Below, piece by piece: positions 5,395 through 28,711 of a DNA stretch of 62,941 nucleotides; position 1 is the first letter of the stretch, and each line of letters begins with the position of its first letter. The DNA lies in the IMG/VR virus record IMGVR_UViG_3300030098_002385, positions 1-62,941 of that record, one strand, 5' to 3'. The position numbers and the translations under genes were made by a program. Below the pieces are notes generated by a model. That model ran no database searches, was not told the origin of the DNA, and worked only from the letters and a program-made list of their open reading frames with translations. The DNA comes from a virus (lineage: Duplodnaviria; Caudoviricetes).

Positions 5395-5820
5395 ATGTAT
5401 AAAAAAAGAAAAAAAACAAGACGTTATGATGATGGCGGTATGGTAGATGATTCTAATCAACCAGACTCTTTAACTAATTATATAAAAGGACATGATATGA
5501 AAAAAAATAAAAAATACAGAATGGGTGGAATGACTAATGATGATGATAACTTTTCTAAAAGTGATTCTATAGCCGCTTATAACTATACAAAAGCAATTGA
5601 CAGTTTGGGTTATGACCCAGTTGATGCACTGACGATGAACAATCCTTTTAACAAGGAAGTTCCTTCCAAATTAAAGTTTGATAAAGAAATGTATAGAAAA
5701 ATAGGACCCTTAAGAGATGCTGATTTACCTGAAGGTTTTTTTGACACCAAGAAACACGGCGGAATGGTAAAAAAATCTAAAGGTGGTCATAGAGACTCAT
5801 TTACTCAACAATACGACTAA
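5395..5820 (+). CDS. Hypothetical protein with repeated xxGG motifs and C-terminal QQYD
   Basis: YDDGGM, YRMGGM, KHGGM, KGGH...QQYD. Confidence 0.65.
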   Translation: MYKKRKKTRRYDDGGMVDDSNQPDSLTNYIKGHDMKKNKKYRMGGMTNDDDNFSKSDSIAAYNYTKAIDSLGYDPVDALTMNNPFNKEVPSKLKFDKEMYRKIGPLRDADLPEGFFDTKKHGGMVKKSKGGHRDSFTQQYD

Positions 5821-5830
5821 ATCTTAAAGT

Positions 5831-6067
5831 ATGAATATATTTAAAGACTCCAATGATTGGAACGAAAAGGCTGTAGTAGGTTTTATAGCTTTTCTAATTA
5901 TGGTTATTGTAATGATAATTGATTTAGTAACTGGTGCTGCTGGTTCTGATTTAGTTATTAATGAATTTGTGTACGACTCATTTGTATGGGTTGTTCTAGG
6001 CTGCTTTGGTATTAGTGGTGTAGAAAAATTTGCTGGAAACAATAAATGTAAAGAGTGTAAGAAATAA
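5831..6067 (+). CDS. Small two-TM membrane protein (holin-like)
   Basis: Two hydrophobic helices and a basic C-terminus. Confidence 0.55.
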   Translation: MNIFKDSNDWNEKAVVGFIAFLIMVIVMIIDLVTGAAGSDLVINEFVYDSFVWVVLGCFGISGVEKFAGNNKCKECKK

Positions 6068-6411
6068 TGGCTAAAGAGTTATCAGAAGACAGTAAATTTC
6101 AGGTTAGCGTAAAAACGTTAGTAGGTATTGCTGTAGGTATAGCCACTATTGTTTCTGCTTATTTTGGTTTAATGAGTAGTATAAACTCTAAGTTTGTAGA
6201 GTTAGAAGATAAAGTAGAAGAAGCTTTAGAAAAACCAAAACCAGGAACAGGTACTTACACAATAGATATGGGTGACCCTGCTGCTTCACAAACTTGGCCA
6301 CCAACTCGTATGGAGTTTAATATGAAAGATGAAATGGCTCGACAGAAAATTGATAATATAATAAAAGAGTTAGATGAACTTAAAGAAGATATAAAAGAGC
6401 TTAAAAAATGA
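6067..6411 (+). CDS. Single-TM protein with C-terminal coiled coil
   Basis: LVGIAVGIATIVSAYFGL; heptad-like tail. Confidence 0.6.
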   Translation: MAKELSEDSKFQVSVKTLVGIAVGIATIVSAYFGLMSSINSKFVELEDKVEEALEKPKPGTGTYTIDMGDPAASQTWPPTRMEFNMKDEMARQKIDNIIKELDELKEDIKELKK

Positions 6412-6809
6412 TTCATAGAATAGACATATCATCATACTTATACATCTTAATGATGGTGTTTATGTTTATTTGCGGAACTACATTTAGTCAAGACTTTATT
6501 ACTTCTAACAACTTTAATAAAAAAATAGCCAAAGACATAGTAGTGGTAGAATTTTGGGCAGGTTGGAACGCTAGTAATGAGTTTAAAGAACTTATAAAAT
6601 TAAAAGACTGTGTGGTATATAGAGTTGATATTTCTGCTCATATGGATGTTCAAATGGATTATGACATTTCTGCGATTCCGACCGTTATCATTTTTGATAA
6701 TGGCGAAGAGAAAGAAAGATTCAAACCAAATGTAATGTTTCAATTAGATGCAGATAAAAAAACAATACAGAATTCAGTGGACACATTGACGTTAAATAAA
6801 TTTCAGTAA
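6408..6809 (+). CDS. Thioredoxin-fold protein lacking CxxC, with N-terminal signal/anchor
   Basis: VVVEFWAGWN...ISAIPTVIIFDNGEEKERF resembles thioredoxin; WCxxC replaced by WNASN. Confidence 0.7.
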   Translation: MIHRIDISSYLYILMMVFMFICGTTFSQDFITSNNFNKKIAKDIVVVEFWAGWNASNEFKELIKLKDCVVYRVDISAHMDVQMDYDISAIPTVIIFDNGEEKERFKPNVMFQLDADKKTIQNSVDTLTLNKFQ

Positions 6810-7315
6810 TGGCAAATACAGTAGTTACACATCAGGCACAAAAACTTAGAATAAAGTCTATGAGAAATAGTCACTTTAAGCTAGTTGTAAATGTAAAAAA
6901 TGCTGGTGGTGGTGATTATGATTTTACTAGTGATACCACAAACCCTACATTGGGAGATGAAGCTTTTTTAAGAATATTCCAAAGCACTGGTTCACCTTTA
7001 AATCTTTCCCTATCTGTTACTGAAGTTACATCAGCCCCTTCTGCTTTAGCTGTTACTAGCTATATGAACCTTACAACTGAAGATGGTAAAATAACTATAG
7101 AGTGGGATAACGAAAGTGGATATCCTTACGCACCTTGGCCTGGAAAATATCAATATACTTTATATACAAAAGATGCTAATGATAGATATTATGTATGGCT
7201 ACATGGAGACTGGGTTGTAGAGGACCAAAATATTGCCCAAAGTGGTATTACTTACACTTTCGCTCAACCAGAACCAGAACCAGAGCCAGAGCCAGAGCCA
7301 GAAGAAACCCCTTAA
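6809..7315 (+). CDS. Putative structural protein with Pro-Glu tail
   Basis: DGKITI...PGKYQY.L pattern reminiscent of baseplate-upper/Ig-like domains; (PE)6 tail. Confidence 0.5.
   Translation: MANTVVTHQAQKLRIKSMRNSHFKLVVNVKNAGGGDYDFTSDTTNPTLGDEAFLRIFQSTGSPLNLSLSVTEVTSAPSALAVTSYMNLTTEDGKITIEWDNESGYPYAPWPGKYQYTLYTKDANDRYYVWLHGDWVVEDQNIAQSGITYTFAQPEPEPEPEPEPEETP
7268..7303 (+). repeat. Hexamer tandem repeat (CCAGAR)x6 encoding (PE)6
   Basis: ccagaa ccagaa ccagag ccagag ccagag ccagaa. Confidence 0.9.
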
Positions 7316-7317
7316 TT

Positions 7318-7581
7318 ATGTCTGTATATTATACTTCAAATATAGACCCAATACAAATAGAGGGGGTAAGTTTTGGAGAGGTTACTATAACACTATCTGT
7401 AACAAAGCCAAGTATAAATGTAAAAATTCCTTCGTATATTAGTAATACAAAAGTTACTAATAGAACTTGTATATATGTAGATAGTCAAAAGCCTGTTATA
7501 CTAGACAATATAAAATCTGTGTCTGCAACCAATAGCGCGGAGGTTACATTACAATTAAAAACTAAACTTTTAAACGCATGA
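7318..7581 (+). CDS. Hypothetical protein
   Basis: Likely start ATG 7318 just after the previous stop; ATGA overlap with the endolysin gene. Confidence 0.55.
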   Translation: MSVYYTSNIDPIQIEGVSFGEVTITLSVTKPSINVKIPSYISNTKVTNRTCIYVDSQKPVILDNIKSVSATNSAEVTLQLKTKLLNA

Positions 7582-8048
7582 GATTAAGTAGAAACTTTAT
7601 GTTAAGGGAGTTTGTAAACAGCGCAACTGCGGCTAGAAAAGGAATAAGCAATAAGCCTACAGAGGTGCATTTAGCTAATTTAAAGAAGCTTATAGATAAT
7701 GTTATACAGCCTGTTAGAGATAAGATAGGTCCTATAAGAATAACCTCAGGGTACAGAAGCCCAGCTCTGAATCGTGCTATAGGGGGAAGTTCTCGCTCAC
7801 AGCATTCAAAGGGAATGGCGGCGGACATACAGTTTGTAAGGGACAATGAAATGGACAATAAAGTTATCTTTGATACTATATTAGAAATGGGTTTAGATTT
7901 TGACCAAATGATTAATGAGTTTGATTACTCTTGGATTCATATATCTTACAACCCAAAAAAGAATAGAAAACAAGTATTAGAGGCTTATAAAGATGATAAT
8001 AACAAAACAAAGTATAGAGAAGTACAAACCAATTTTAAAGGATTATGA
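7578..8048 (+). CDS. Peptidase M15 family endolysin
   Basis: ITSGYRSPALN..IGGSSRSQHSKGMAADI...WIHISY. Confidence 0.9.
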   Translation: MRLSRNFMLREFVNSATAARKGISNKPTEVHLANLKKLIDNVIQPVRDKIGPIRITSGYRSPALNRAIGGSSRSQHSKGMAADIQFVRDNEMDNKVIFDTILEMGLDFDQMINEFDYSWIHISYNPKKNRKQVLEAYKDDNNKTKYREVQTNFKGL

Positions 8049-8431
8049 TAAAAGGAATTTTAAATAAACTTGTTGGTGATGCAGGGAACATCATAGACAA
8101 TGTGGTGACAACTAAAGAAGAAAAGATGCAATTAAAGAACGAGATGAAAAAAATGATTCTTGATTCTGAAAATGATTTACAAAAGAATGTAACAGAACGT
8201 TGGGTTGCAGATATGAAATCAGATAGCTGGTTGAGTAAGAATGTAAGACCTATGACACTTATATTTGTTCTTGTGTGTACTATGTTATTAATATTCATAG
8301 ATGCTGGAACTATAGAGTTTCATGTTGAAGAAAAATGGACAGATTTGTTACAACTTGTTTTGATAACAATCGTGGGGAGTTATTTCGGAGGAAGGTCCAT
8401 CGAAAAGCTTAAAAATGGTAAAAATAAATAG
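8045..8431 (+). CDS. Holin (3TM/GTA-type family)
   Basis: RW.ADM.SDSWLSKNVRP, TM helices, YFGGRSIEK; next to endolysin. Confidence 0.8.
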   Translation: MIKGILNKLVGDAGNIIDNVVTTKEEKMQLKNEMKKMILDSENDLQKNVTERWVADMKSDSWLSKNVRPMTLIFVLVCTMLLIFIDAGTIEFHVEEKWTDLLQLVLITIVGSYFGGRSIEKLKNGKNK

Positions 8432-8433
8432 TT

Positions 8434-8763
8434 ATGGCTAAATCACCTGCGTGGCAACGTAAAGAGGGTAAAAGTCCTAGTGGAGGTTTAAATAAAAAAG
8501 GGGTAGCTTCATATAGAAGAGCTAATCCAGGCTCTAAACTTAAAACCGCTGTTACCACAGACCCTAAGAAATTAAAAAAGGGTAGTAAAGCTGCTAAAAG
8601 AAGAAAGTCTTTTTGTGCTAGAATGAAGGGTATGAAAAAAAGAAGAACTAGTGCAAAGACAGCAAGAGACCCTAATTCAAGAATAAATAAATCATTAAGA
8701 AAATGGAATTGTGAATCTGGGTGTGTTACACCATCTGGAGGAATGTATTCGCAACACGATTAG
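8434..8763 (+). CDS. Basic phage protein ending GGMYSQHD
   Basis: GGLN.KG...PGSKL...RRKSFCARM pattern; K/R-rich. Confidence 0.7.
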   Translation: MAKSPAWQRKEGKSPSGGLNKKGVASYRRANPGSKLKTAVTTDPKKLKKGSKAAKRRKSFCARMKGMKKRRTSAKTARDPNSRINKSLRKWNCESGCVTPSGGMYSQHD

Positions 8764-8765
8764 TT

Positions 8766-8939
8766 ATGGCAAAAAAAACTGTAAAAGCTCCAGCTGGTTT
8801 TCACTGGATGAAAAAAGGAAACAATACTTTCAAATTAATGAAACACACAGGTAAGTTTAAACCACATCCTGGTGGAAGTTTAACTGCTAGTTTTGATGTG
8901 CAAAAAGTACACAGAACTACTACAAAAAAGAAAAAATAA
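8766..8939 (+). CDS. Small basic protein
   Basis: Likely start ATG 8766; KAPAGFHWMK motif; TAATG overlap with next gene. Confidence 0.65.
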   Translation: MAKKTVKAPAGFHWMKKGNNTFKLMKHTGKFKPHPGGSLTASFDVQKVHRTTTKKKK

Positions 8940-9130
8940 TGGCAAAAGATGCATGTTATCATAAGGTAGTAAGTAGGTATGGTCCTAAAACATCAGCATA
9001 TAGAAGTGGTGCTATGGCAAAGTGTAGAAAAGTTGGTGTATCTAATTGGGGTGAAGGTGGTAAAAAGAAGAAGAAAAAAATGAAACACGGTGGTATGATT
9101 GGTTGTTTATTTGAATATCAAAAAGACTGA
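8939..9130 (+). CDS. Small basic protein ending HGGM...YQKD
   Basis: KDACYHKV...SAY.SGA..KCRK.G..NWG. Confidence 0.7.
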   Translation: MAKDACYHKVVSRYGPKTSAYRSGAMAKCRKVGVSNWGEGGKKKKKKMKHGGMIGCLFEYQKD

Positions 9131-9399
9131 TGGCTGTACGTAAAACTAAAAAAGGATTAGCTCTTAAGCGTTGGTTTAAAGAGGATTGGAGAACTCCTAG
9201 GGGTAATAAAGATTACTCTAAAGGAGAAAATACATTTAGACCTACTAAAAGAGTATCAAAAAAAACACCAAGTACATGGAGTGAGTTAAGTGCTTCTGAA
9301 AAGGCTCGTGCTAAAAAAGAAAAAAATACAAAGGGTAGAGTTAGTAGATATAAAAGAAAAAAGAAAAAAGGTCTTGGTGGAATAATACAACACAATTAA
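9130..9399 (+). CDS. Small basic protein ending GGIIQHN
   Basis: LKRWFKEDW...RPTKRVSKKTP.T. Confidence 0.7.
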   Translation: MAVRKTKKGLALKRWFKEDWRTPRGNKDYSKGENTFRPTKRVSKKTPSTWSELSASEKARAKKEKNTKGRVSRYKRKKKKGLGGIIQHN

Positions 9400-9400
9400 A

Positions 9401-9679
9401 ATGGCAAGGAATACATTAGCAGGTAAAAGAAATGGTACTTCTAGAACAGCAAAGTTCTACGCAAAAAATAAAAAATCTAGAGATAAAAAGAAAGCATACG
9501 ATACCAAATATCATAGTTCTACAGAAAGAAGAAAATATAGAGCTTCTTTAAATAAAGCAAATAAAAAAAGTAAATTAAGTAGAAAAGGTGATAAAAAAGA
9601 CATGTCCCACACTCGTGGCGGAAGTCTTATATTAGAGGCTCAAAAAAGAAATAGGGCTAGAAATAGGGGTAAAAAGTAG
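9401..9679 (+). CDS. Small basic protein, possibly a degenerate HNH-like fold
   Basis: GDKKDMSH...NRARN pattern. Confidence 0.55.
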   Translation: MARNTLAGKRNGTSRTAKFYAKNKKSRDKKKAYDTKYHSSTERRKYRASLNKANKKSKLSRKGDKKDMSHTRGGSLILEAQKRNRARNRGKK

Positions 9680-9761
9680 TAATTAACACTATTTTGTTAA
9701 TAAAACCACTATAATTATACACTTTTTTAAAAAAAAATTAGGATATTGGGTACGTTTTGTT

Positions 9762-10199
9762 ATGAAACCAAAAACACATTTAATAATAGCTGCTGTATTT
9801 GTTACAGAAAATAAATCAGATTTAGACCCAAAACTTAAAAATCTACCAGGCAAGTGGGACTTAATCAATACAGACGGCTCCCTATCTACCATAAACAATC
9901 CATCAGAAAACAAAGACGACGATATTTTAAAACTTGCCTATATAAAACCATTGAAACAAAATAACTTAGATAATAGAACATTTAAACAAGTGGATTCTAT
10001 GGAAGCTTACATTAAATACCATATACTAAGACACCCATCTATATATATATGCGATGTAAGCCTATTTTATAATAATTTAAAAGTAGGATTTAAAATAAAA
10101 AACTTAGCAGATGAAATGGGTATAGATGAAAGAAGTATTATGTTATTTTGTGAAGAAGAAATAAAAATACCAGATTATGAAGAAATCAGAAGAAGTTAA
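9762..10199 (+). CDS. Hypothetical protein
   Basis: 145-aa ORF overlapping the start of the next gene. Confidence 0.6.
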   Translation: MKPKTHLIIAAVFVTENKSDLDPKLKNLPGKWDLINTDGSLSTINNPSENKDDDILKLAYIKPLKQNNLDNRTFKQVDSMEAYIKYHILRHPSIYICDVSLFYNNLKVGFKIKNLADEMGIDERSIMLFCEEEIKIPDYEEIRRS

Positions 10200-11463
10200 A
10201 AAGTATTTACTAGAAAACCCTGACAAACAAAATGGAGACTATGCTAATACTGCTGCAATGTTTGGCACTAACTATGAACAAGTAAGAAGTATTGCAAGAA
10301 CAATAAGGGGTTCACATTCTAATAATAGAACTAAAAAGAAAGAGAAGTTAAGCATGGAAGAGGGTCCAGAAGGTAGATTTATAATAGCAGAAGATACAAC
10401 AAGAGTAAAGTCATTAGATGATTTGCTGAAAGCCTTTGATGTCAATGATAGTGAATGGGAAGTTGACTGGTACGACATTGGTACATACGAACAAACAGGT
10501 TTTGATAATGAAAGAAAACCAGTAACCATTACAATGTACCGTTGTAAAGCAAAATTAAAAAGAGCCAACCCATTTAAAAATCTAGAACTTACAAGAAGAG
10601 AGTTGATGGAAGACTTGTCGCAACATGTTAAAAGAGTTCCTCGGCACAAAAAAATAATTAAAGGACAAGATGAATCACCACACTTGTTAGAGATTGGCGC
10701 GTATGATTTGCACTTAGGTAAGATTGGTATCATAGGTGATGAGTATAGTATGGATATTGCAGAAGAAAGGTTAATGAAAGCTATAGACCATTTATTAATG
10801 AGAGCATCGTCATTCACTATAGATAAGATATTGTTTGTAGTTGGAAATGACTTGTTAAATACAGATGGAGATAAACCAATACCGCGCACTACTAAGGGGA
10901 CTCCTCAGTTTAATAGTGACCACCATATTGAAATGTATAAAAGAGCTAGAAGGCTTATGATAATGGCTATAGATGAATTAGCTTCAATATGCCCTGTTCA
11001 TGTGGTTGTTATGCCAGGGAATCACGATGAAGAATGTATAATGTACTTAGGGGACGCATTAGAGCTGTTCTACGAGCAGAATGACAATGTTCTAGTAGAT
11101 AACACTAGACCGCTAATGAAAGGTCTTAAATACGGTAAAAACCTTATTGCGTTTGACCACGGACATAAGATGAAAGCTGAGAAAGCTGTTCAAATACTAC
11201 CTCAAAGGTTTAAAGAAATGTGGAGTGATGTAGATTATGTAGAGCTACATAGAGGTCATTTACACGGAGTTCATCACAATAAGATTGGTGCCACTAAAGA
11301 GTATAGTGGAATCACTGTAAGGAACTTAGGTAGTATGTGCGCAACCGACCAATGGCATGATGATAAAGGATATGTGGGTAATATAAAAAGGGCGCATGGT
11401 TTTATATGGAGTAAGAACAATGGATTACAAGCAGAATTCTTTTACAATGTGCCTATAAATTAG
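10177..11463 (+). CDS. Calcineurin-like metallophosphoesterase with N-terminal HTH-like region
   Basis: DLH, GND, GNHD, HGH and GHLH motifs in order. Confidence 0.85.
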   Translation: MKKSEEVKKYLLENPDKQNGDYANTAAMFGTNYEQVRSIARTIRGSHSNNRTKKKEKLSMEEGPEGRFIIAEDTTRVKSLDDLLKAFDVNDSEWEVDWYDIGTYEQTGFDNERKPVTITMYRCKAKLKRANPFKNLELTRRELMEDLSQHVKRVPRHKKIIKGQDESPHLLEIGAYDLHLGKIGIIGDEYSMDIAEERLMKAIDHLLMRASSFTIDKILFVVGNDLLNTDGDKPIPRTTKGTPQFNSDHHIEMYKRARRLMIMAIDELASICPVHVVVMPGNHDEECIMYLGDALELFYEQNDNVLVDNTRPLMKGLKYGKNLIAFDHGHKMKAEKAVQILPQRFKEMWSDVDYVELHRGHLHGVHHNKIGATKEYSGITVRNLGSMCATDQWHDDKGYVGNIKRAHGFIWSKNNGLQAEFFYNVPIN

Positions 11464-11530
11464 AAAAAAGGAACTTCGGTATTATGTTTTACGCAAAAAT
11501 CAATTTGCAACCTACGCATTCCTTTTTTTC
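11463..11530. terminator. Probable bidirectional terminator at the convergence of the two arms
   Basis: gaaaaaaggaa ... ttcctttttttc inverted repeat between converging genes. Confidence 0.5.
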
Positions 11531-11536
11531 TTGTTA

Positions 11537-11998: not shown

Positions 11999-12243
11999 TA
12001 TAATAATTTTAGATGGCGTTTTTTTACCATTAAGTTGAACTCTTTATTTCTTTCAGCTTTATCATGACAATCCCTGCACAAGGCTGCAAGATTCTCTATG
12101 TAATCTCTGTTTTTTGACCCCCCAATCCCACGTCTTTCAATGTGATGGATGTCAACAGCTTGTCTATTACATACCGTGCATGGTATGATATCGTCTAAAG
12201 CATAGTTAAAATATTTTAAATATATCTTAGTGTGCTTTTTCAT
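11998..12243 (-). CDS. HNH endonuclease
   Basis: CTVC...DIHH...NL..LCRDCH. Confidence 0.85.
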   Translation of the reverse strand: MKKHTKIYLKYFNYALDDIIPCTVCNRQAVDIHHIERRGIGGSKNRDYIENLAALCRDCHDKAERNKEFNLMVKKRHLKLL

Positions 12244-12593
12244 TTATCTTCATAGTCTCCTGATTCTATTAGTACACCTGAATTATCATCATTAAAGTAT
12301 AGCCATGCGTGGTGTTTCTTTTTATTACCACGCACAGCTATCTTTTTTCTTGTGTACCAAGAAGGGTGACCTTCTAATAAATCTAACATTTCCAAAACAT
12401 GTCCAGATACTTGATATACTTCACCAAATATGTTAGACACCTTTTCATGTTCATTAACAAATGGTATACCAGTATGATACATAGCATACTTATCTTTTGT
12501 AAAACCATAGTCAATAAACTTTGAATCTTTTAAAAGCACATGATTACCGTGACCTTTTCGTAAGGTTCCGTATACAAATACTAACTCTGCCAT
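12240..12593 (-). CDS. Gamma-glutamylcyclotransferase (AIG2-like)
   Basis: VFVYGTLRKG..N...GEVY...LD.LEG.P..Y.R. Confidence 0.9.
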   Translation of the reverse strand: MAELVFVYGTLRKGHGNHVLLKDSKFIDYGFTKDKYAMYHTGIPFVNEHEKVSNIFGEVYQVSGHVLEMLDLLEGHPSWYTRKKIAVRGNKKKHHAWLYFNDDNSGVLIESGDYEDK

Positions 12594-18632: not shown

Positions 18633-19991
18633 TTAATCCTGCTTAAGGAACTTGTCTTTCCTCTTATTTATATATTCTAATAAGAACATACCGTCCTTAC
18701 CAAGACCTTCTGAGACTATGTCACGCAGAGTTACTCCACCTGATACTTCGTGTGGACGATGTCCATTTATCCACGCATTGTAAGATTCTATAATTTGTCT
18801 TGAATTATTTTCTACATACCTTACAAAGCACATACATATTAAAACCCAATTATAGATTTTCTCAAAGTCTTTTGAGCCACTATGACATCTAAATTCTATA
18901 GTGTCAGGACCAGTCTTTTCATAACTACAGTTGTTAAGGTTTAACCATTTATATCTAGAGGAACAATACCTACCGTATGGATGGTGACCTTTCTTGTTGT
19001 TACGAGAATCGAAATTAGAATCTTCTGCGTATACATATTCAGATAGAAGTTTAAGCATTCTTTTGTAAGTCCTTGGATACAACCTTTTGTTAACAGTTCT
19101 TAACTGATAAAACTTGTTAGGTATCTTTAGACAATAACTACTTTTACTTCTTGACTTGGGTAGCATAGAGAATATTTCATTTTCAAGCATGCTACCAAGC
19201 ATAATAGATAGTATACTAAATCTTCTATTGAAGTTAGCGCCACCTATGTGAACATGTATACCACAAGTAGAGTCCACGGTACAACCTGAGTCAGATATAC
19301 TTTTACATATATCCTGAAGTTGATTAACACCACTGTTACCTTTTAGGCAACCTGTAACATACTCCTTACCATCAATACTACCATCATGCACAGCTTTAAG
19401 GTTCAAATCTTTATTAAAATCCATATAACCATCGCATGTTTCTATTTCCACGCCAAAGGTGTACGGCATACCAAAGGTTTTATGAAGCTTTTTTTCATTC
19501 GTACCATTCCAAGTGTTATCCCATTCTGCACCGCCATCTCCATCTTCATCCTCATCCCAATCATCTTCGTGTATCCAATCTTCTCTGGCGTCTGAATATA
19601 TATAACCCATACGTTCTGCAATATATTCGGTCATAAAATACACATCATTATTGCTAGAGTATGAATAGTCAGCTCTTTCAGAAAACCAACCTTCTGAGCC
19701 TCGTTCATAGTAACCCCAAAGCATATTGTCAGTGAATCTATACACCTCATCATAGTGGTCAAACTCAATCTCAAAATCAGAATATTCATCTTCAGGGTAA
19801 TATTCCCCATTACAATCACAATATATAACTTCATCCTCATGCATCCAAAGACTGTCACAGTCACTACTAAGCATTACATAATCATCTTTATCTTTGTGAA
19901 CAAATCCACCGTTGTATAATTCATAACACTCATCTGCTGGATACCAATCACCACATACACATTCTTGCAATTCTTCTTTAATAGTACTCAT
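18633..19991 (-). CDS. Amidoligase (COOH-NH2 ligase family) with acidic Cys-containing N-terminus
   Basis: FGVEIE, HDGSI, E.VT, CGIHVHIG, RY.WLN, TIEFR. Confidence 0.85.
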   Translation of the reverse strand: MSTIKEELQECVCGDWYPADECYELYNGGFVHKDKDDYVMLSSDCDSLWMHEDEVIYCDCNGEYYPEDEYSDFEIEFDHYDEVYRFTDNMLWGYYERGSEGWFSERADYSYSSNNDVYFMTEYIAERMGYIYSDAREDWIHEDDWDEDEDGDGGAEWDNTWNGTNEKKLHKTFGMPYTFGVEIETCDGYMDFNKDLNLKAVHDGSIDGKEYVTGCLKGNSGVNQLQDICKSISDSGCTVDSTCGIHVHIGGANFNRRFSILSIMLGSMLENEIFSMLPKSRSKSSYCLKIPNKFYQLRTVNKRLYPRTYKRMLKLLSEYVYAEDSNFDSRNNKKGHHPYGRYCSSRYKWLNLNNCSYEKTGPDTIEFRCHSGSKDFEKIYNWVLICMCFVRYVENNSRQIIESYNAWINGHRPHEVSGGVTLRDIVSEGLGKDGMFLLEYINKRKDKFLKQD

Positions 19992-20880
19992 AAGCCATAG
20001 TGTTTAAATAGTTATACAATTCCATTAATTTTGTAGATTCTTCATCACTAAATCTATCAGTGCAATACAAATCGTGAACAAAGCTTGCGTGTTCATTGAT
20101 TTCGTCAAAATGTTCTTTGTCTAAATCATCATCATCTTCAAAGTGATAGTTATCGTATCTAAGTGAGTTGTTGTAATAGTTATAACTCTTACTAGAACCA
20201 TAACTTCTCCAATCAGTATTTATAGAAACTTCAGATTCAATAGGCTTGTGTTTGATTTTTCTTGTGTTAACAATTTTACCATCCTCAAGCGTATATAACA
20301 CATTTTCAGTGACTTCCACTATTTTACAGCCTTTACCACCAATAGTTTTTAGACCTTCTTTCAAAGAGCTGATGTATATACCATCTTCTGTTTTTACATA
20401 ATACAATGGGTTGTCTCTACGATACATATACAATTTATTGTCACCTTTTGTAAACAATACATTCTTTGCACCACCAAATAATCCTAAGTTGTTATCATCT
20501 TTTGTCTGTGAAAGAACTTTGAATATCATTTGAGAGTCAACGGTAGTTTTCTTGATGTTAAACTTCTTACCCACTTCTTTATAGTTTGATAGAACACCAT
20601 TGTGAGCGCCTATAATATTACCATATTGATAAGGGTGAGCGTTCTCAACAGTGTGTTCACCGTGAGTTGCATACCTTGTATGTCCAATAAGAACACTACC
20701 TGTTGTACTTGTTTTAAGCATAGGTAATATATTCATAGACTCTTCAACAGTCTTGTATATTTTACCATTTGCAAGTAACCCTGTAGAGTGCCCACCTCTA
20801 CTATCGTTATCTGCTAATAAATGTAAAGCTTTGAACACACTAGTGTTAGCCTTACCATTAAATCCTACTAATCCACACAT
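19978..20880 (-). CDS. Class II (Ntn) glutamine amidotransferase
   Basis: MCGLVG start, RGGHSTG, GHTRYAT.G, NAHPY, HNG, VDS. Confidence 0.92.
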   Translation of the reverse strand: MCGLVGFNGKANTSVFKALHLLADNDSRGGHSTGLLANGKIYKTVEESMNILPMLKTSTTGSVLIGHTRYATHGEHTVENAHPYQYGNIIGAHNGVLSNYKEVGKKFNIKKTTVDSQMIFKVLSQTKDDNNLGLFGGAKNVLFTKGDNKLYMYRRDNPLYYVKTEDGIYISSLKEGLKTIGGKGCKIVEVTENVLYTLEDGKIVNTRKIKHKPIESEVSINTDWRSYGSSKSYNYYNNSLRYDNYHFEDDDDLDKEHFDEINEHASFVHDLYCTDRFSDEESTKLMELYNYLNTMAYEYY

Positions 20881-21986: not shown

Positions 21987-21987
21987 C

Positions 21988-22300: not shown

Positions 22301-22383
22301 TTCTTTGGGACGGCAATAATTTAGCCGTAATGTAGTGAAGGATAAATACATAAATCGTTCCGTAAGGAACAACCTTGTTGAAA

Positions 22384-22405
22384 TAAAGGGAGACAAGTGT
22401 CCCCC
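22384..22405 (-). terminator. Intrinsic terminator-like hairpin after 22422-22991
   Basis: Minus strand ggggacacttgtctccc followed by tttattt. Confidence 0.5.
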
Positions 22406-22421
22406 AATATTCAATATGTAA

Positions 22422-22991: not shown

Positions 22992-23036
22992 AATATTTAC
23001 ATTTAATAATAATACTCGTTACAGGTGAGTACAAAC

Positions 23037-23153
23037 CTATTTGTATAAACCATTTTTAGTTTTACCATTGCTACCCCAACAAGCGTTCATATTAGATGAA
23101 GCACAAGATGTGAGCAATAGAGCACATAGTAATAGTAGTAATAACTTTTTCAT
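23037..23153 (-). CDS. Small lipoprotein (38 aa, not in ORF track)
   Basis: MKKLLLLLLCALLLTSCASSNMNACWGSNGKTKNGLYK; lipobox LTSC. Confidence 0.65.
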   Translation of the reverse strand: MKKLLLLLLCALLLTSCASSNMNACWGSNGKTKNGLYK

Positions 23154-23239
23154 TTTTTTGTTTTTTTTACAGGATACTTGACATAACCATAGTCACGCAG
23201 TTGTTGTATTTCGTATTCTGTATACAGTGATTTGTCCAT
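23150..23239 (-). CDS. Putative 29-aa peptide
   Basis: MDKSLYTEYEIQQLRDYGYVKYPVKKTKK; ATGA overlap with the lipoprotein gene. Confidence 0.4.
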   Translation of the reverse strand: MDKSLYTEYEIQQLRDYGYVKYPVKKTKK

Positions 23240-23346
23240 AGTATAATAATTTGGCACTATACTTGAGGTGATAGTGATTAACCTTAGATTATAGTTTATC
23301 CACATCTCGGTGTCTTCAGTTGTTATTTAGGCTACTGACCAATCCT

Positions 23347-23487
23347 TTAGATAATATGTGTTACAGCATAACCAACACAACCAATGATGAATGTGAGGAA
23401 TAATACTGATAGCAATAATATTGTAACATATTTACTTGTGATGGCGTCAAGGAACTTACCTGACAACCTTTCTAGTTTTTGTAGCAT
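23347..23487 (-). CDS. Small membrane protein
   Basis: Likely start MLQKLERL; C-terminal TM helix. Confidence 0.5.
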   Translation of the reverse strand: MLQKLERLSGKFLDAITSKYVTILLLSVLFLTFIIGCVGYAVTHII

Positions 23488-23757
23488 AGCAAAAGATTTT
23501 AATAATACGATATAAAATAACAAAACATACATAACACCCAAATAGTATACGCATAGATATTACACACAAACGACACTTGACAATGTCAAAAATATTTCGT
23601 AACTTGGGCGGGAGTGGGACAACAAGTACATATAAACCACGCAAATCACCTAAACAATATACAATACAATATACACTACGAAACTACACTAGACACACAT
23701 TGTGAATATAGTGGAATAATGTGGTTCGTTAGAACGCAGATATACTTATCTACATAG

Positions 23758-23770
23758 ATGATAGTGAACA
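23758..23770 (-). promoter_or_regulatory. Motif copy TGTTCACTATCAT at the head of the leftward arm
   Basis: Identical to 18522-18534. Confidence 0.5.
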
Positions 23771-23948
23771 TCCTAGTTAGTTAATACAATATATAATAAC
23801 AATATTAACAATCCTTTTTACAGAGCTGTGAAGTATTTTGTTTTTAGTGTACGGTAGCTCGAAGAATGAGAGAGGGTGGGGCTATAACAGTATAAAGGTC
23901 CATACAACCGTTTGTATATTAAAAAAAAATATAAAAAAAATTTTTTCG

Positions 23949-23956
23949 TAGTTTTG
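23949..23956 (+). promoter_or_regulatory. -7 element TAGTTTTG
   Basis: TAnnTTTG 4 nt before ATG 23961. Confidence 0.6.
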
Positions 23957-23960
23957 TAGA

Positions 23961-24311
23961 ATGGAAAAATATGTATATTTCAGAACTGTATCTGACGTGG
24001 CTGATGATGATGACCAAACCTCTTCTTGTTTATTTCCTTTAAGTAGTTTTATGGGTGGTTATACTGTAACCGCAAATTTGGTAGTATTACATTTTAAATG
24101 TATGCACGACTTTAGAACAAATTCTGCTTCTAGTAGGGATAATGTGGTATTAACTACAACAAGTGGTTCAGCTGGCTCTGTGTTTGAATCTATTATGAAA
24201 GAGTTTTCTACAGGTGAAAATTATTTTATAGAGATAGCAGATGATGTAAGTGGTAAATATACTACATCAGGAATTAGTAATGTTTTATCAATAACTGTTC
24301 AAATAGTTTAA
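23961..24311 (+). CDS. Hypothetical protein, paralog family C
   Basis: MEKY..F...PLSSF.G...LHF...KEFSTGE. Confidence 0.65.
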   Translation: MEKYVYFRTVSDVADDDDQTSSCLFPLSSFMGGYTVTANLVVLHFKCMHDFRTNSASSRDNVVLTTTSGSAGSVFESIMKEFSTGENYFIEIADDVSGKYTTSGISNVLSITVQIV

Positions 24312-25051
24312 TGGAAAAATATATAAAATTAAATAAAAGCTCTACAGATTCTCAAACAGAAGGTTATTTAATATTACCATTAAATAATTTTACTGGTTCA
24401 AATCCCTCTGCTGATAATAAGTTATTGTTGTATTTTGTACCTATGGCAATAAATACAAGAAATTCTGGTGTAGACAATTTTGAGGTAGAGCTTACTATTA
24501 CCAACAACAAACACAAAGAAGTATTAGAAGATTTAACAAAAGAATTTGCTACAGGTGAGGAGATATATATAGATTTTGATAATGAAACATCTACATTTCC
24601 ATCGTCAGACATATCAGCTGTAGACTGGACTTTTAGTCTAAAATGTGTTTATGATAATGGTTGGCATGGTAGTATACAAAAAATAAAAATACTACCAAGA
24701 GATTTTATAGCAGATGATGTGGGTAGGCCTGTAATGATAGATGATACAGGTAGTGACAGGTGGGTGGAGTCTTTTTCAACCTCTCCACTATATGCCTCTG
24801 TACCTATACCATTTGGATTTAAAGCCACTGGTGTTACAATATATGGTAGCGCAACATCTGCTGTTACAGTATATGAGGCAGATATAGACAGTAAAACAGT
24901 TACAAGTAAAGGTACAGGAAATATAGGCACAACAATAAGTATTACAGAGGTCACTGCAGATATCACAAATTATTTATTAATAGAATTAGCACAGGCAAAT
25001 GGAGAGGAAGTATACGGAGGAGTTGTAACTATAGCCGCAGTATATGCTTAG
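24311..25051 (+). CDS. Family C domain plus C-terminal beta-rich domain
   Basis: MEKY...PLNNFTG...LYF...KEFATGE; second half YASVPIPFGFKATGV. Confidence 0.65.
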   Translation: MEKYIKLNKSSTDSQTEGYLILPLNNFTGSNPSADNKLLLYFVPMAINTRNSGVDNFEVELTITNNKHKEVLEDLTKEFATGEEIYIDFDNETSTFPSSDISAVDWTFSLKCVYDNGWHGSIQKIKILPRDFIADDVGRPVMIDDTGSDRWVESFSTSPLYASVPIPFGFKATGVTIYGSATSAVTVYEADIDSKTVTSKGTGNIGTTISITEVTADITNYLLIELAQANGEEVYGGVVTIAAVYA

Positions 25052-25135
25052 TGGGTGGTATAAAAAAATTTTAAAACGCTTGCGCGTTTGGATAAAGAAA
25101 CACATTATAGATGACGCGCCGACAAATTTAGATAT

Positions 25136-25495
25136 ATGAAACTAGATAAATACAATTATAACGTAGAAATAAGTCGTGTGGTAGATGGCGACACAGTAGA
25201 TGTAATGATAGACTTGGGCTTTGACACGCATATTAAAAGACGTGTTCGTATGCACGGAATTAATGCGCCAGAGTCTAGAACAAGAGATTTAGAAGAAAAA
25301 AAGAAAGGTTTGGCTACAAAAGAAAGATTAAAAGAAATACTTGCTAGCGATAAGATTATTATGAAGTCTCACGGAAAAGGTAAGTTTGGTAGAGTGTTAG
25401 GTGAGTTATTTGTAGAAAAAGACCAAGAAATAAGTGTAAATCAAATATTAGTTAGAGAGGGGCATGCGGTAGAATATTTTGGCGGAAAACGTTAA
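25136..25495 (+). CDS. Thermonuclease (SNase-like)
   Basis: RVVDGDTVD, RVRMHGINAPE, GKFGRVLG. Confidence 0.9.
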   Translation: MKLDKYNYNVEISRVVDGDTVDVMIDLGFDTHIKRRVRMHGINAPESRTRDLEEKKKGLATKERLKEILASDKIIMKSHGKGKFGRVLGELFVEKDQEISVNQILVREGHAVEYFGGKR

Positions 25496-25544
25496 AATTA
25501 TAATTCGTATATTTATAGTTCTTTTCTAATTCAGTTTTCATGGT

Positions 25545-25575
25545 TGGGAGGTCTATATGGCCTCCTATTTTTTTT
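25545..25575 (+). terminator. Intrinsic terminator
   Basis: tgggaggtc-tatat-ggcctccta followed by T8. Confidence 0.7.
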
Positions 25576-25577
25576 AT

Positions 25578-25585
25578 TATATTTG
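25578..25585 (+). promoter_or_regulatory. -7 element TATATTTG
   Basis: 4 nt before ATG 25590. Confidence 0.55.
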
Positions 25586-25589
25586 TAAA

Positions 25590-25892
25590 ATGGAAAGATA
25601 TGTCTTTTTTCAGAATTCCGCTTCAGATTATATGCTGTTACCAGTTAGTAGTTTTGTGGGAGGGAAGTATTCTTCAAGTACACTTATAAATTTGTATTTT
25701 GAGAAAGCTCCTTTTTCTTATAAAGTCCCCCTAACAGTTGGCACATATAAGGGAGATGAGGTATTAAAAACAATAGGAAAGTTATTTAGTAGCTCTGTAG
25801 ACCCTATTATTGTATTTTCTGACACAGAAGAAAGGTTTGATGTTAATAATGTAACAGCTGTAGGAACTTTTAGTAAAATTGTTGTTAAATGA
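25590..25892 (+). CDS. Hypothetical protein, paralog family C
   Basis: MERYVFF...LPVSSFVG...LYFE. Confidence 0.65.
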   Translation: MERYVFFQNSASDYMLLPVSSFVGGKYSSSTLINLYFEKAPFSYKVPLTVGTYKGDEVLKTIGKLFSSSVDPIIVFSDTEERFDVNNVTAVGTFSKIVVK

Positions 25893-26533
25893 AAAATTAT
25901 AATGCTATTTTTGTTTGTTACGAATCTATTAATATAGGTTTTATTAATCCATTTTCTACACCTAATACTCCAAATTTAGATAACACTAATTTCACTGAAA
26001 GGCCTTCTTATGTAGATTTTTCTACATTAAAATTAAAAAGAGGTGACCAAATATATTATAACAAAAAATTAAGAGATAGTGTAACTGGAGAAAAGCAAAA
26101 ACAAACTACACCAACTGTTATAGGTATTGTTAATGGAGAGCCAACAGCTTCTAGAATTGTTTTAGGCGCTAATGTCGGTCAAGATGTATATGATGATTTT
26201 TTAAATGGTGGAATAAAAGTTTACGCTGTAAGAAGAAAAAGTACAAGTGGCAGAAAAATATATTCTTATCCAATTAAAAATTATATAGGAGCTTGTGATT
26301 ACACAAGTTCTATAATATCTTTATTTTTTGAAAGAACAGCAGGTAAGATAGATGAGGTTAGATTAGATGTTCCTAAAGGAGGTGCTTATCAAGCTATTAT
26401 AGCTGTAAATAAAGCTTTTTATTCGGAAAGTAAGGGTGATATAATTTTTGATAATTCTGGTAGTACAACAGAAAGTAGTAAAATTGTATCAGTTAACAAA
26501 GTTATTTCAACTATAGCACAAAACAGAAATTAG
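25889..26533 (+). CDS. Hypothetical protein with a C-terminal family C-like domain
   Basis: YPIKNYIG...SLFFE...DEVRL. Confidence 0.6.
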   Translation: MKNYNAIFVCYESINIGFINPFSTPNTPNLDNTNFTERPSYVDFSTLKLKRGDQIYYNKKLRDSVTGEKQKQTTPTVIGIVNGEPTASRIVLGANVGQDVYDDFLNGGIKVYAVRRKSTSGRKIYSYPIKNYIGACDYTSSIISLFFERTAGKIDEVRLDVPKGGAYQAIIAVNKAFYSESKGDIIFDNSGSTTESSKIVSVNKVISTIAQNRN

Positions 26534-26551
26534 CATGTTATTAAAATTTCA

Positions 26552-26559
26552 TATCTTTG
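26552..26559 (+). promoter_or_regulatory. -7 element TATCTTTG
   Basis: 4 nt before ATG 26564. Confidence 0.55.
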
Positions 26560-26563
26560 AAGA

Positions 26564-26857
26564 ATGTTAGAGCAAAAAACCAAATACGGTCGTATAAACA
26601 AATCTTTTAAAGGTGATTTATACCACGAAACTTTTTTTAAAAACTTTGAATCTATTCCAAAAAAAGAGGAAAAGATAGTAATGAATTTAATAGATAAAGG
26701 TTATAAAATAGAAGATAAAAAAATATTTTATGTAGGTGGAGGGCAATATCAGGGAGTAGAAACATTTTTAAATTACGACACAGGTGATTATGTTTCAGAA
26801 AAATACACTTATATAGAGCATGGGGTTTGGAAATTAAAATTTAAAATAAAAAAATAA
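26564..26857 (+). CDS. Hypothetical protein
   Basis: 97 aa; TAATG overlap with next gene. Confidence 0.65.
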   Translation: MLEQKTKYGRINKSFKGDLYHETFFKNFESIPKKEEKIVMNLIDKGYKIEDKKIFYVGGGQYQGVETFLNYDTGDYVSEKYTYIEHGVWKLKFKIKK

Positions 26858-27342
26858 TGGCTACATTAAGAGTTACACACACAGAAGACATTGTCCTAGA
26901 GGGAAGACAACAAGGAACTACTAGAACAATGAGATACGATAATATTACAGATATTTTTTCTAGAGTTATATCATTTGCCCAAGGAAGCAATATGGTTCTT
27001 TATGCTACAGTATCAACTCACGCAGAAATGGTTGCTGGTTATGTTTTAGATGATGGTTCTGTTAAATATGTTCGAATAACAAGTTTAGGTAACGAACCTG
27101 TTGTTATACAAATTCTTGGAGAAGATGATGGGAGTGATGAAATGAATTTTGCTTATGAATTACAACCAGGTCAATCTTTTTATCTTTACAACCACCAGTT
27201 AGCTATGAGGGTAGATGACACTAATGATATTACAACGACAGAGTGTAGAACTAGCTTAGTTGATATAGACCAAGTAAAAGTGGTTTGCCCTAGAGGGACA
27301 GGTAAAGTAGAACTTTTTGCTGCAAGTACTGATTCTAAATAA
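26857..27342 (+). CDS. Putative structural protein (family A-like)
   Basis: MATL.V, V.YVRIT.L and KVELFAA shared with the next gene. Confidence 0.6.
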   Translation: MATLRVTHTEDIVLEGRQQGTTRTMRYDNITDIFSRVISFAQGSNMVLYATVSTHAEMVAGYVLDDGSVKYVRITSLGNEPVVIQILGEDDGSDEMNFAYELQPGQSFYLYNHQLAMRVDDTNDITTTECRTSLVDIDQVKVVCPRGTGKVELFAASTDSK

Positions 27343-27350
27343 TATAAACT

Positions 27351-27824
27351 ATGGCTACATTAACAGTTCAAATAAAGGAAACTTTAAATTTAAATGGTAA
27401 AGAACAGGGTTCTGTAAACACTAAAACAATATCCGATATTACACAGTGTTTAAAAACTATTGTAGAAGTTCCAACTTCTGAAATAAACTTATTAACATTT
27501 GCATCTGCTGCAGCTGGAATAACAACTTTAGACCAAGATGATGTAGAGTATATTAGAATAACAAATTTAGATACTACTAATTATATTACAATAGGTATAG
27601 AAAAAGAAAGTTCAACTGCTTCTGTTGCTGCTTTTAGATTAGATGCTGGTAGAAGCTTTATAGTTGCAACACCAAATACAACAACAGAACACCCTCAATT
27701 CTTTACAAGTGATTCTGCTCATGACTCAAGTGCTACACAAATAGACATAGAGACTATAACTGCGCTTGCTAATACAGATACTTGTAAATTAGAATTGTTT
27801 GTAGCGTTGAACACAACAACATAG
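27351..27824 (+). CDS. Putative structural protein (family A-like)
   Basis: MATLTV, VEYIRITNL, KLELFVA. Confidence 0.6.
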   Translation: MATLTVQIKETLNLNGKEQGSVNTKTISDITQCLKTIVEVPTSEINLLTFASAAAGITTLDQDDVEYIRITNLDTTNYITIGIEKESSTASVAAFRLDAGRSFIVATPNTTTEHPQFFTSDSAHDSSATQIDIETITALANTDTCKLELFVALNTTT

Positions 27825-27825
27825 T

Positions 27826-28353
27826 ATGTATTTACTAAACATTGACAAGCGGGGGGAAATTATAGAAACAGACGATGGTTTGTATGCTATTGAAGAGTTT
27901 AGAGAGGTGGTAGAAGAATTTGGGTTGAAAGGAATATTATGGGTGGCTTTAGTATGTGATTATGATTCACCATACAGACACTTTGTAGAAAGAGAACAAG
28001 TAAAGTCAGTTAGTAAAGCTGTGTTTAATACCTATAATTGGAAAGGAATTAGAAATGAAAAAATTGCTAATGCAATTAAAAGGTATAAGGAGTTGCAGTT
28101 TGACCCATTAGATGCGCAGTTAATAGCATTTAATGAAAAGATAGATGAATATACTCAGTTAATGAAAAATGTAAAAATTAACGAGGATAATGCGGAAAGT
28201 ATGCAGAAAATAATGATAGGTGTAGAGAAAGTATTAAACACTAGACAAAAATTATTAGATGCTATAGAAAGAAGAGGAGAGCGTAAAAAAATAAAAGGAG
28301 AAGCAAAAATGAGTTATTTAGAACAACAAATGAACATAAAATCTAAAATATAA
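27826..28353 (+). CDS. Possible terminase small subunit
   Basis: Helical protein with DYDSPY and coiled coil, two genes upstream of terL; positional inference. Confidence 0.4.
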   Translation: MYLLNIDKRGEIIETDDGLYAIEEFREVVEEFGLKGILWVALVCDYDSPYRHFVEREQVKSVSKAVFNTYNWKGIRNEKIANAIKRYKELQFDPLDAQLIAFNEKIDEYTQLMKNVKINEDNAESMQKIMIGVEKVLNTRQKLLDAIERRGERKKIKGEAKMSYLEQQMNIKSKI

Positions 28354-28357
28354 AGTT

Positions 28358-28711
28358 ATGGCAAAAGATGGCAAAAGGTCAACACCGCAATCAGTTGGAA
28401 CATTTAACGAAGCTTTTAAACAAGCAAGAGAATCAGGTGTTAAAACATTTATGTGGAAAGGTAAAAAATACAACACAAAAACATTAGATGAGGTAAAAAA
28501 TACATCAACTAAAAAAACAAAAACAGATACAGGCGCATCTGCTTATATGACACCTAAGTATAAAGCTGGTGGTAAATTAAAAGCAGTTCCTGCTGGAAAT
28601 AAAGGTCTTTCTAAGTTACCAACTAGCGTTAGAAACAAAATGGGTTACATGAAAAAAGGTGGTAAAATTGATATTAGGTATAAAGGGGGAGGAATTGTGC
28701 AGCATGATTAG
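28358..28711 (+). CDS. Basic protein with xxGG motifs ending GGGIVQHD
   Basis: FNEAFKQAR..G.KTF.WKGKKY; YKAGG, MKKGG, YKGGG. Confidence 0.7.
   Translation: MAKDGKRSTPQSVGTFNEAFKQARESGVKTFMWKGKKYNTKTLDEVKNTSTKKTKTDTGASAYMTPKYKAGGKLKAVPAGNKGLSKLPTSVRNKMGYMKKGGKIDIRYKGGGIVQHD

Follow-up and report, generated by a model that had tools for sequence, protein, structure and literature searches.

Five small proteins encoded in the genome of a tailed virus (Caudoviricetes; IMG/VR record IMGVR_UViG_3300030098_002385), which we analysed over its whole length of 62,941 bp and call the window, end in variants of one short peptide in which a Gly-Gly pair is followed, at the very end of the chain, by Gln-x-Asp or Gln-x-Asn. 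The data leave us in very little doubt that this tail is a genuine tag, i.e. that it is real, selected, portable, strictly terminal and specific to one clade of phages. A sequence-only reading of the window had picked out the five open reading frames (ORFs), placed them in three loci and described their bodies as dissimilar and mostly K/R-rich. The translations match its endings exactly and three loci are indeed occupied; the bodies, with the last 12 residues removed, fall into five separate BLASTP clusters at E<1e-5, and four of the five proteins are strongly basic, the 5395-5820 product being only mildly so (K+R versus D+E: 28/22 for 5395, 31/5 for 8434, 16/4 for 8939, 30/7 for 9130 and 27/8 for 28358). 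The excess is visible in the window itself, where 5 of the 75 ORFs before base 51800 end Q-x-[DN] compared with 0.35 expected from composition (binomial p ~3e-5, a post hoc value). A sixth tagged ORF was looked for in the window and none was found.

The tail is strongly enriched in related phages, as comparison with the shuffled controls called for by the sequence-only reading makes clear. In a survey of the window and 80 related loci (1397 greedily called ORFs, 1264 of them unique), Q-x-D was the most frequent C-terminal pattern, ending 63 of the 1264 unique ORFs versus 3.1 expected (p ~1e-58, about 20-fold); in 300 shuffles the mean was 2.3 and the highest count 7. Control endings were nearly absent (DxQ 0, QxE 1, ExD 2, NxD 2), and K-x-K, in this lysine-rich proteome, ended 50 ORFs. 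Asp is thus not interchangeable with Glu (63 QxD versus 1 QxE). The consensus reads [YF]-x-x-G-G-hydrophobic-[IV]-Q-[HY]-D-COOH, and variant tails such as ..FTQQYD, ..GQKD and ..RQLD reduce what is common to all to Q-x-D-COOH. Conservation was measured on 47 representatives, one for each body cluster, drawn from 50 clusters after leaving out two hydrophobic junk ORFs and one genuine low-charge protein removed by the composition filter (L080:5477-5821). Gln stands at -3 in 47/47 and Asp at -1 in 45/47 (Asn in 2); His (31) and Tyr (12) dominate at -2, Gly is found at -7 in 34 and at -6 in 28, and Tyr or Phe at -10 in 30. The pattern GG-x-hydrophobic-Q-[HY]-D occurs 47 times at a C-terminus and 0 times internally.

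It is the peptide that is selected. The main tail type occurs in 73 distinct nucleotide contexts, in which all four Gly codons (GGT, GGC, GGA and GGG) are used, Gln is CAA in 54 and CAG in 19, His CAC in 42 and CAT in 24, Asp GAC in 36 and GAT in 36, and the stop codon is TAA in 52, TAG in 20 and TGA in 1, while both the sequence and the spacing downstream of the stop are variable. With synonymous sites free and the downstream region variable, selection must act on the peptide, and neither a signal in DNA or RNA nor a recently copied cassette can account for the tail. We had considered a DNA-level cause in which a Shine-Dalgarno-like GGAGG and the start of the next gene lie inside the tail, and rejected it on the same free synonymous codons and variable downstream spacing.

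Two of the five window carriers have a Pfam family and the other three have none. The 8434-8763 protein, which ends ..SGGMYSQHD, matches PF19846 (DUF6321) over residues 12-91 (E 1e-18; 68.1 bits against a gathering cut-off of 28.5). An AlphaFold2 model of moderate quality (mean pLDDT 63.5) gives it a helical body (block means 58-77) and a tail, residues 95-109, below 50; this low-confidence tail would fit an exposed linear motif. The 9130-9399 protein matches PF19197 (DUF5872; E 5e-13, 50 bits against a cut-off of 27.5) and carries the rare Asn-ending variant, its orthologues in relatives ending ..GGIIQHD or ..GGIIQYD. The 8939-9130 protein has a Cys-containing module also present in phrog_727, in a region of that family different from the one matched by 8434-8763, and its homologues in relatives end ..EYQKD, ..FSKQYD, ..MRFQHD or ..GGTIRQHD. 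Internal Gly-Gly-containing units occur in two of the bodies: three GGM units in the 5395-5820 protein, for which neither a Pfam nor a PHROG family was found, and KAGGK and KKGGK in the 28358-28711 protein. The tail of 5395-5820 recurs on unrelated ORFs of relatives as ..GG[KR]xR[DN]xF[TSK][EQ]QYD. Separately, several tails contain Cys (window 8716-8760 and 9086-9127, and homologues in the genomes G007, G009 and G005), for example ..CESGC.., ..IGCLFEYQKD, ..ICCLLEYQKD and ..ACCCNMDRFSKQYD, and some DUF5872 homologues lacking Q-x-D have ..NMCCCGARMSRLNEQH.. in their tail.

The tail is carried by many unrelated bodies of one general type. The fetched loci hold 134 unique tagged ORFs that form 50 body clusters, two of them spurious, leaving ~48 unrelated families; the genuine clusters are all 40-194 aa long with an isoelectric point of 9.2-11.3. 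Lysine makes up 20.3% of the tagged proteins versus 8.2% of the untagged ORFs of the same loci, the mean net charge per residue is +0.17 versus -0.02, and 81% of the tagged versus 6% of the small untagged ORFs exceed a net charge of 0.1 per residue. The Gly-Gly-hydrophobic unit recurs inside many bodies, at least two GG being present in 28 of the 47 representatives. Where a carrier belongs to an established family, the tail is added beyond the natural end of a domain that mostly lacks one elsewhere. Thus, among the best 120 clusters of DUF6321 homologues (7995 passed E 1e-5 of 8000 scored), 92 stop at the last Cys of the domain and 11 carry a Q-x-D/N tail; the homologue ends ..RRRWKC in the tagless genome G002, and for that gene also in G007. 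Similarly, 24 of the best 120 out of 1248 clusters of DUF5872 homologues end Q-x-[DN], as do 19 of the 120 clusters listed for homologues of the 28358 protein. As a separate observation on the other end of the chain, a Met-Pro start was found in 17/48 tagged cluster representatives versus 36/819 untagged ORFs (odds ratio ~12), in the window as in the loci (e.g. L051:4517-5217 and L030:2447-3527).

Lysine-rich modules of other marine phage lineages, found among the relatives of 9130-9399 (P0242-P0361) and of 28358-28711 (P0022-P0120), carry other recurrent tails, namely ..GGGFILPGPAxI, ..PYGMQMGPNNVL, ..RGMGAAKRGGSFKGTF, ..GIAVRGKTKGKIC and ..GARMSRLNEQH followed by any residue. These may represent a wider set of lineage-specific C-terminal tails. 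In an unrelated marine virus obtained by single-cell amplification (MH319741.1, 33114-45428, our L001), DUF6321 modules and the Cys modules of the 8939 type are strung together into lysine-rich multi-domain proteins of 416-632 aa, one of them with a nucleotidyltransferase-like HxGH motif.

The tag is confined to one clade of crassviruses. We scanned all of IMG/VR and 596 Gb of prokaryote genomes with a back-translated GG-x-I-Q-H-D-TAA pattern. IMG/VR gave 55 stretches, of which 44 lie in relatives of the window phage and end real-looking lysine-rich ORFs; the other 11 have no window homologue, fall in open frames of less than 45 residues in all cases but one, and look like chance. The prokaryote genomes gave 51 stretches, one per unrelated taxon, and 0/51 showed a window homologue or a K-G-G context. 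In a comparison of 15 complete or near-complete genomes of the group, 13 encode 1-9 tagged ORFs each and two, G001 and G002, whose large terminase subunit (TerL) is ~66% identical to that of the window, encode none.

Within these genomes the carriers occupy particular places. The 42 tagged basic ORFs counted in the 13 tag-bearing genomes are all on the strand of TerL, i.e. the late, structural strand; the charge filter behind this count dropped a few mildly basic tagged ORFs, among them 5395-5820 of the window. Two hot spots stand out, one 0-3 kb upstream of TerL and the other beside the lysis genes, which in the window (7578-8431, +) adjoin the 8434-9399 tag cluster directly upstream. The first hot spot directly follows a 175-aa gene kept in all relatives at 50-85% identity, and the slot between that gene and TerL holds different small ORFs in each relative, most of them ending Q-x-D, mostly as ..GGxIQHD, ..GGxxRxxFT[EQ]QYD or ..GGxL(12-16 residues)[GEQ]Q[KR]D. 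Other relatives have arrays of two to five tagged ORFs slightly further upstream.

The sequence-only reading had taken the tail for a portable addressing signal, for instance one for capsid loading. Its first part stands, since a peptide that is found on ~48 bodies, varies at synonymous sites, is terminal only and is restricted to a clade is a portable selected peptide and owes its distribution neither to chance nor to shared descent; capsid loading is a possible role, suggested by context and analogy. We tentatively favour the proposal that the tail serves for virion loading or docking, much as the capsid-targeting sequence does in T4, and put it at a little over one chance in three. We infer that the tail is read by another protein, that this reader would be a virion component and that the carriers would be packaged. 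The genomic context is one of small polycations encoded in hypervariable late-strand hot spots beside terminase and lysis genes, the phage belongs to the crassviruses, which are known to carry protein cargo, and the different tails of other lineages fit a phage receptor that co-evolves with its ligand better than a universal host factor. The tail would then be a portable, lineage-specific C-terminal address peptide whose core is the Gln at -3 and the Asp at -1 with its free carboxylate, attached by the clade to fast-turnover, small, lysine-rich proteins of the late strand near the terminase and lysis genes. Predicted to be unstructured, it would plug into one conserved phage-encoded receptor during head assembly, and the polycations would thereby co-assemble into the protein-cargo space of the virion, lie next to the DNA and be carried into the host along with it, where they would act as charge neutralisers and/or early effectors.

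Tags of this general kind, terminal address peptides on interchangeable cargo, are known. Short, portable C-terminal peptides that dock inside an HK97-fold shell load the cargo of encapsulins and target the HK97 maturation protease to the capsid. Like the encapsulin peptides, the tag described here is a portable C-terminal peptide on otherwise unrelated proteins; its sequence differs from their Gly/Ser/Leu-rich one, its carriers are polycations rather than enzymes, and docking onto a capsid is here hypothetical. Codes of a few residues read only at the chain end are also familiar from PTS1 (-SKL, read by Pex5), from EEVD read by TPR clamps and from PDZ ligands; the likeness lies in the dominance of the last and the -3 residues, whereas those codes belong to eukaryotic or other systems and differ in sequence. 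No TPR- or PDZ-type reader was found among the proteins scanned. The closest likeness to the proposed function is with the T-even internal proteins (IPI, IPII, IPIII and Alt), whose short capsid-targeting peptide suffices, in T4, to load foreign proteins into the head (PMC3012670). There too a constant peptide is the only common feature of hypervariable small lysine-rich proteins from a polymorphic locus, as here a short peptide is common to ~48 unrelated basic bodies and to a polymorphic slot upstream of TerL. The T4 signal, however, is N-terminal, targets the scaffolding core and is cut off by the prohead protease, whereas the tag stands at the very end of the chain, with 47 terminal and 0 internal occurrences, needs its free end, shows no cleavage site and is borne by proteins whose packaging is hypothetical. 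Finally crAss001, which belongs to the same virus order and matches the window in its capsid, ring and muzzle families, stores several MDa of protein in its capsid and tail barrel, a cargo put at ~5.5 MDa (PMC10172136). According to the same text its cargo proteins (gp45, gp46 and the RNA-polymerase proteins) are large and bind portal and ring proteins through folded domains or helices (PMC10172136). As far as that text goes, no common terminal tag is described for them (PMC10172136), and the large proteins encoded after the muzzle gene in the window are untagged as well.

Several observations weigh against a virion-loading tail. Behind the muzzle gene, where crAss001 encodes its cargo proteins, the large proteins of the window (527, 767 and 612 aa) carry no tag, and an ORF of more than 3712 aa there runs off the contig; the tag would therefore serve at best a subclass of cargo. 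The tagless G001 and G002 share the capsid, portal and scaffold genes at 31-53% identity, so the structural module does not require tagged proteins. A search of the window for prohead protease families gave no match to Peptidase_S78 or S77, the S77 result being weak because its control matched nowhere, and the cleavage half of the T4 analogy thus falls away. Genes for the lysis stage or for other late functions would likewise be expected on the late strand. When we profiled for a receptor, asking for clusters present in most tag-bearing genomes and in neither tagless one, only three head-region clusters emerged (314 aa, 169 aa and a 161/157-aa pair, in 9-12 of the 13 tag-bearing genomes), and this phyletic pattern may only reflect sequence divergence. 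A co-fold from alignments that combined the 48 C-terminal residues of the 28358 protein with the capsid protein and the C-terminal half of the scaffold-like protein gave no answer (score 0.00, mark 0.32), and we count it neither for nor against binding. Taken further, the virion-loading proposal would make Q-x-D-COOH the first 'zip code' at a C-terminus for loading the virion of a tailed phage, one that fills the crassvirus cargo space with an interchangeable, fast-evolving arsenal of injected small polycations, as well as one dialect of a wider tail code of marine phages; for this bolder version we would allow roughly one chance in four.

Two candidate mimics of the tag within structural proteins were tried and rejected: the window TerL ends ..YYKRDGGRLVPFKD and the last residue varies among relatives, with no Q-x-D, and a ..SQHVD.. 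motif that the scaffold-like protein has close to its C-terminus shows no conservation across 10 genomes. We also note a loose resemblance between the Y-K-x-G-G-hydrophobic layout of the tag and the conserved, hairpin-like end of TerL (28724-30544; ..GFVYYKRDGGRLVPFKD), which has the form ..YYK-x-x-x-G-x-L-[IV]-P-[YF]-K-x.

The tail could instead dock small proteins onto a hub outside the virion, either a host protein (of the replication, transcription, translation or defence machinery) or a phage enzyme, and its carriers would then form an unpackaged, cytoplasmic set for host takeover or anti-defence. This reading, which we consider unlikely at around one chance in four, accommodates a portable, selected, terminal peptide equally well, as it does carriers that are hypervariable accessory genes in hot spots and a tail that is predicted to be unstructured, and it easily explains why G001 and G002 have the same virion genes and no tag if the target sits in a host that they do not infect. 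On the other hand, the exact motif is absent from the 596 Gb of prokaryote genomes (0/51 stretches resemble it), so no host protein with a tail of that form is being mimicked; the different lineage-specific tails on lysine-rich modules elsewhere argue against a conserved host hub; and an exclusively late-strand location (42/42) would be odd for takeover genes unless their products were packaged.

Less probable again, to the point of being doubtful, is a tail that nothing reads, a self-contained element, perhaps a small hairpin or cap that adjusts how disordered polycations bind nucleic acid, self-associate or stay soluble. The strong basicity of the carriers points in this direction, as do the Gly-Gly-hydrophobic units inside many bodies (at least two GG in 28/47) and the KKGG-type units in lysine-rich proteins of other marine phages that have no Q-x-D end. 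A role in composition would not, however, demand Gln at -3 in 47/47 representatives, Asp over Glu by 63 to 1 or a terminal position by 47 to 0, and the restriction of what variant tails share to Q-x-D-COOH rather resembles recognition of a free C-terminus.

That host proteases read the tail as a signal for stability or turnover, be it a C-terminal degron or a protecting element, so as to time or limit its carriers seems improbable to us. Such a signal would agree with a strictly C-terminal position and a free carboxylate, and disordered-looking polycations could well be toxic or unstable. Known bacterial C-terminal degrons are non-polar, and Asp-Asp at the end of the ssrA tag blocks recognition by ClpXP. 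This chemistry speaks against a degron ending in Asp, and neither restriction to a clade nor lineage-specific alternative tails would be expected of a signal for conserved host proteases.

A more specific proposal, to which we give very little credence, makes the tail the substrate or handle of three enzymes encoded by the phage, an Amidoligase_2, a class-II GATase-like protein and a GGACT cyclotransferase, in a scheme like that of Pup in which the amidase acts on Gln, the ligase joins the carboxylate to an amine and the cyclotransferase reverses the link. A ligase of the glutamine-synthetase type conjugates Pup, whose C-terminus is GGQ or GGE. Neighbourhoods of Amidoligase_2, GATase-like and AIG2 genes were reportedly predicted by Iyer and co-workers in 2009 to make and remove gamma-glutamyl-type amide links. 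The likeness is that Gly-Gly is followed by Gln and an acid C-terminus on a small disordered protein and that a glutamine-synthetase-like ligase, an amidase-like enzyme and a gamma-glutamyl cyclotransferase occur in the same genome, all three in the window; the chemistry is coherent (an invariant Gln, a terminal acid and a GG linker), and seven tag-bearing genomes have both ligase and GATase whereas the two tagless genomes lack both. The tag differs from Pup in having Gln at -3 and Asp last (45/47) in place of a GGQ or GGE end, many carriers in place of one modifier, and genes that are not adjacent: in the genomes examined the tagged genes never adjoin the ligase and lie 4-9 kb from it on the opposite strand. 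More decisively, six tag-bearing genomes (G009, 100% complete with terminal repeats, and its five relatives G016-G020, four of them at least 97% complete) have neither a PF12224 match nor a tblastn match to ligase, GATase or GGACT, and keep 1-4 small basic Q-x-D/N ORFs each, for example ..GGGRIQHD, ..CRYTQHD, ..FRQLD and ..YKQHD, so that the tag does not depend on the ligase. G009 also lacks COOH-NH2_lig and ATP-grasp_3 matches. Because a tree of TerL, portal and capsid groups G009 with the tagless pair (support 1.0), the correlation between enzymes and tag amounts to about one evolutionary event; with either rooting, one long branch had tags without enzymes. The six enzyme-free genomes bring this link close to refuted. 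As to the enzymes themselves, the Amidoligase_2, GATase-like and GGACT set is present in seven of the compared genomes and not in eight, and is a widespread phage set with no known substrate.

That there is no tag at all, the shared ending being due to chance, to diverged paralogues keeping an ancestral C-terminus or to conservation at the DNA level (e.g. the ribosome-binding region of the next gene), might be suspected from carriers that are small, of low complexity and mechanically called, and from clusters that are clearly paralogous (one of them, C0, has 21 members), but is already refuted and next to impossible given the ~20-fold enrichment (p ~1e-58), the free synonymous sites with variable downstream spacing and sequence, the unrelated established Pfam families among the bodies that lack the tail elsewhere, and the 51 chance matches in 596 Gb of prokaryote DNA against 44 true ones in a single phage clade. 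What probability remains falls to something other than the readings listed here.

The sequence-only reading stated that its author knew of no description of the tag, and our literature search for the motif strings and the two DUF names found none either (the motif strings gave one irrelevant match); nor did it return a functional paper on DUF6321 or DUF5872.

The phage itself is a crassvirus, judging from its capsid, ring and muzzle families and its crAss-type TerL and portal, and the tag-bearing clade consists of crAss-like phages from the sea that are uncultured. The record, which the window covers in full, has an estimated completeness of 95% and a last ORF that runs off the end; IMG/VR contains many relatives, some of them 61-71 kb long and with terminal repeats. 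The best matches of TerL and portal among GenBank phages are below 30% identity, hence there is no cultured relative, and the named hosts of those matches are all Bacteroidota, from which we take the host to be probably a member of that phylum. ORFs were called mechanically (longest ORF, greedy) with no gene finder. The features discussed are collected in Table 1. A Pfam search with the 175-aa gene product gave no match, and the scaffold-like protein, whose gene is conserved in 10/10 compared genomes, had no Pfam, PHROG or PDB sequence match; a PDB sequence search with the capsid protein was likewise without match. A 161-aa ORF separates the genes of the two ring proteins (38261-40083, +).

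Table 1. Tagged genes and other features of the window.
Feature	Position	Strand	Basis or remark
Tagged protein, 141 aa, variant tail ..KGGHRDSFTQQYD	5395-5820	+	Tail codons 5779-5817
M15 endolysin	7578-8048	+	phrog_894 and PF08291
Holin	8045-8431	+	phrog_3427
DUF6321 protein, 109 aa, added tail ..ESGCVTPSGGMYSQHD	8434-8763	+	Tail codons ~8716-8760
Tagged protein, 63 aa, Cys-containing module, tail ..HGGMIGCLFEYQKD	8939-9130	+	Tail codons 9086-9127
DUF5872 protein, 89 aa, tail ..GLGGIIQHN	9130-9399	+	Tail codons 9370-9396
GGACT / AIG2-like gamma-glutamyl cyclotransferase	12240-12593	-	PF06094, E 5e-24
Amidoligase_2	18633-19991	-	PF12224, E 3.5e-19
Class-II GATase-like protein	19978-20880	-	PF13522, E 1e-12
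175-aa gene, no family	27826-28353	+	Position suggests small terminase subunit
Tagged protein, 117 aa, tail ..YKGGGIVQHD	28358-28711	+	Tail codons 28679-28708; between 175-aa gene and TerL
Large terminase subunit (TerL)	28724-30544	+	phrog_6681, E 1.5e-87
Portal protein	30548-32839	+	phrog_6547, E 2.7e-119; ~28% identity to crAss-like phage portals
Scaffold-like protein, N-terminal half very acidic	32881-33894	+	Position (portal-capsid gap) and composition only
Crassvirus major capsid protein	33971-35380	+	PF23898 Crass_capsid, E 6.4e-36; phrog_11589
Tail-barrel ring 2	38261-38998	+	PF25702, E 6e-13
Tail-barrel ring 1	39427-40083	+	PF24228, E 1e-33
Crassvirus muzzle protein, 1991 aa, untagged	40083-46058	+	PF25731, E 6e-116

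Further features of the genome deserve mention. Directly after the muzzle gene lies a gene for a 527-aa protein (46070-47653, +) with an N-terminal LysM domain (E 1e-10), in the genome position that the cargo protein 1 gene takes in crAss001. The ORF of more than 3712 aa that runs off the contig (51805-62940, +) has no Pfam match and has a counterpart of 3668 aa in G009; this ORF and the gene for the 1991-aa muzzle protein jointly occupy more than a quarter of a 61-71 kb genome. Were the capsid T=9 like that of crAss001, whose genome is 103 kb, a large part of its interior would be available to protein. Two tandem paralogues of 161 and 157 aa (26857-27342 and 27351-27824, +), the pair that emerged from the receptor profiling, lie upstream of the 175-aa gene.

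A single partner of the tail, once found, would assign a role to ~48 orphan families together. Were that partner a host hub, the tag would mark a new takeover interface. Were it a virion component, the T4 capsid-targeting sequence would have a C-terminal equivalent in this tail, which would help to explain how crassviruses fill their protein-cargo space; its hypervariable, co-injected carriers would be candidate anti-defence factors, and the peptide would offer a simple handle to load foreign proteins into such particles. The motif, practically absent from 596 Gb of prokaryote genomes, is in itself a sharp marker for the accessory genes that carry it and for a clade of abundant, uncultured crassviruses of the ocean.

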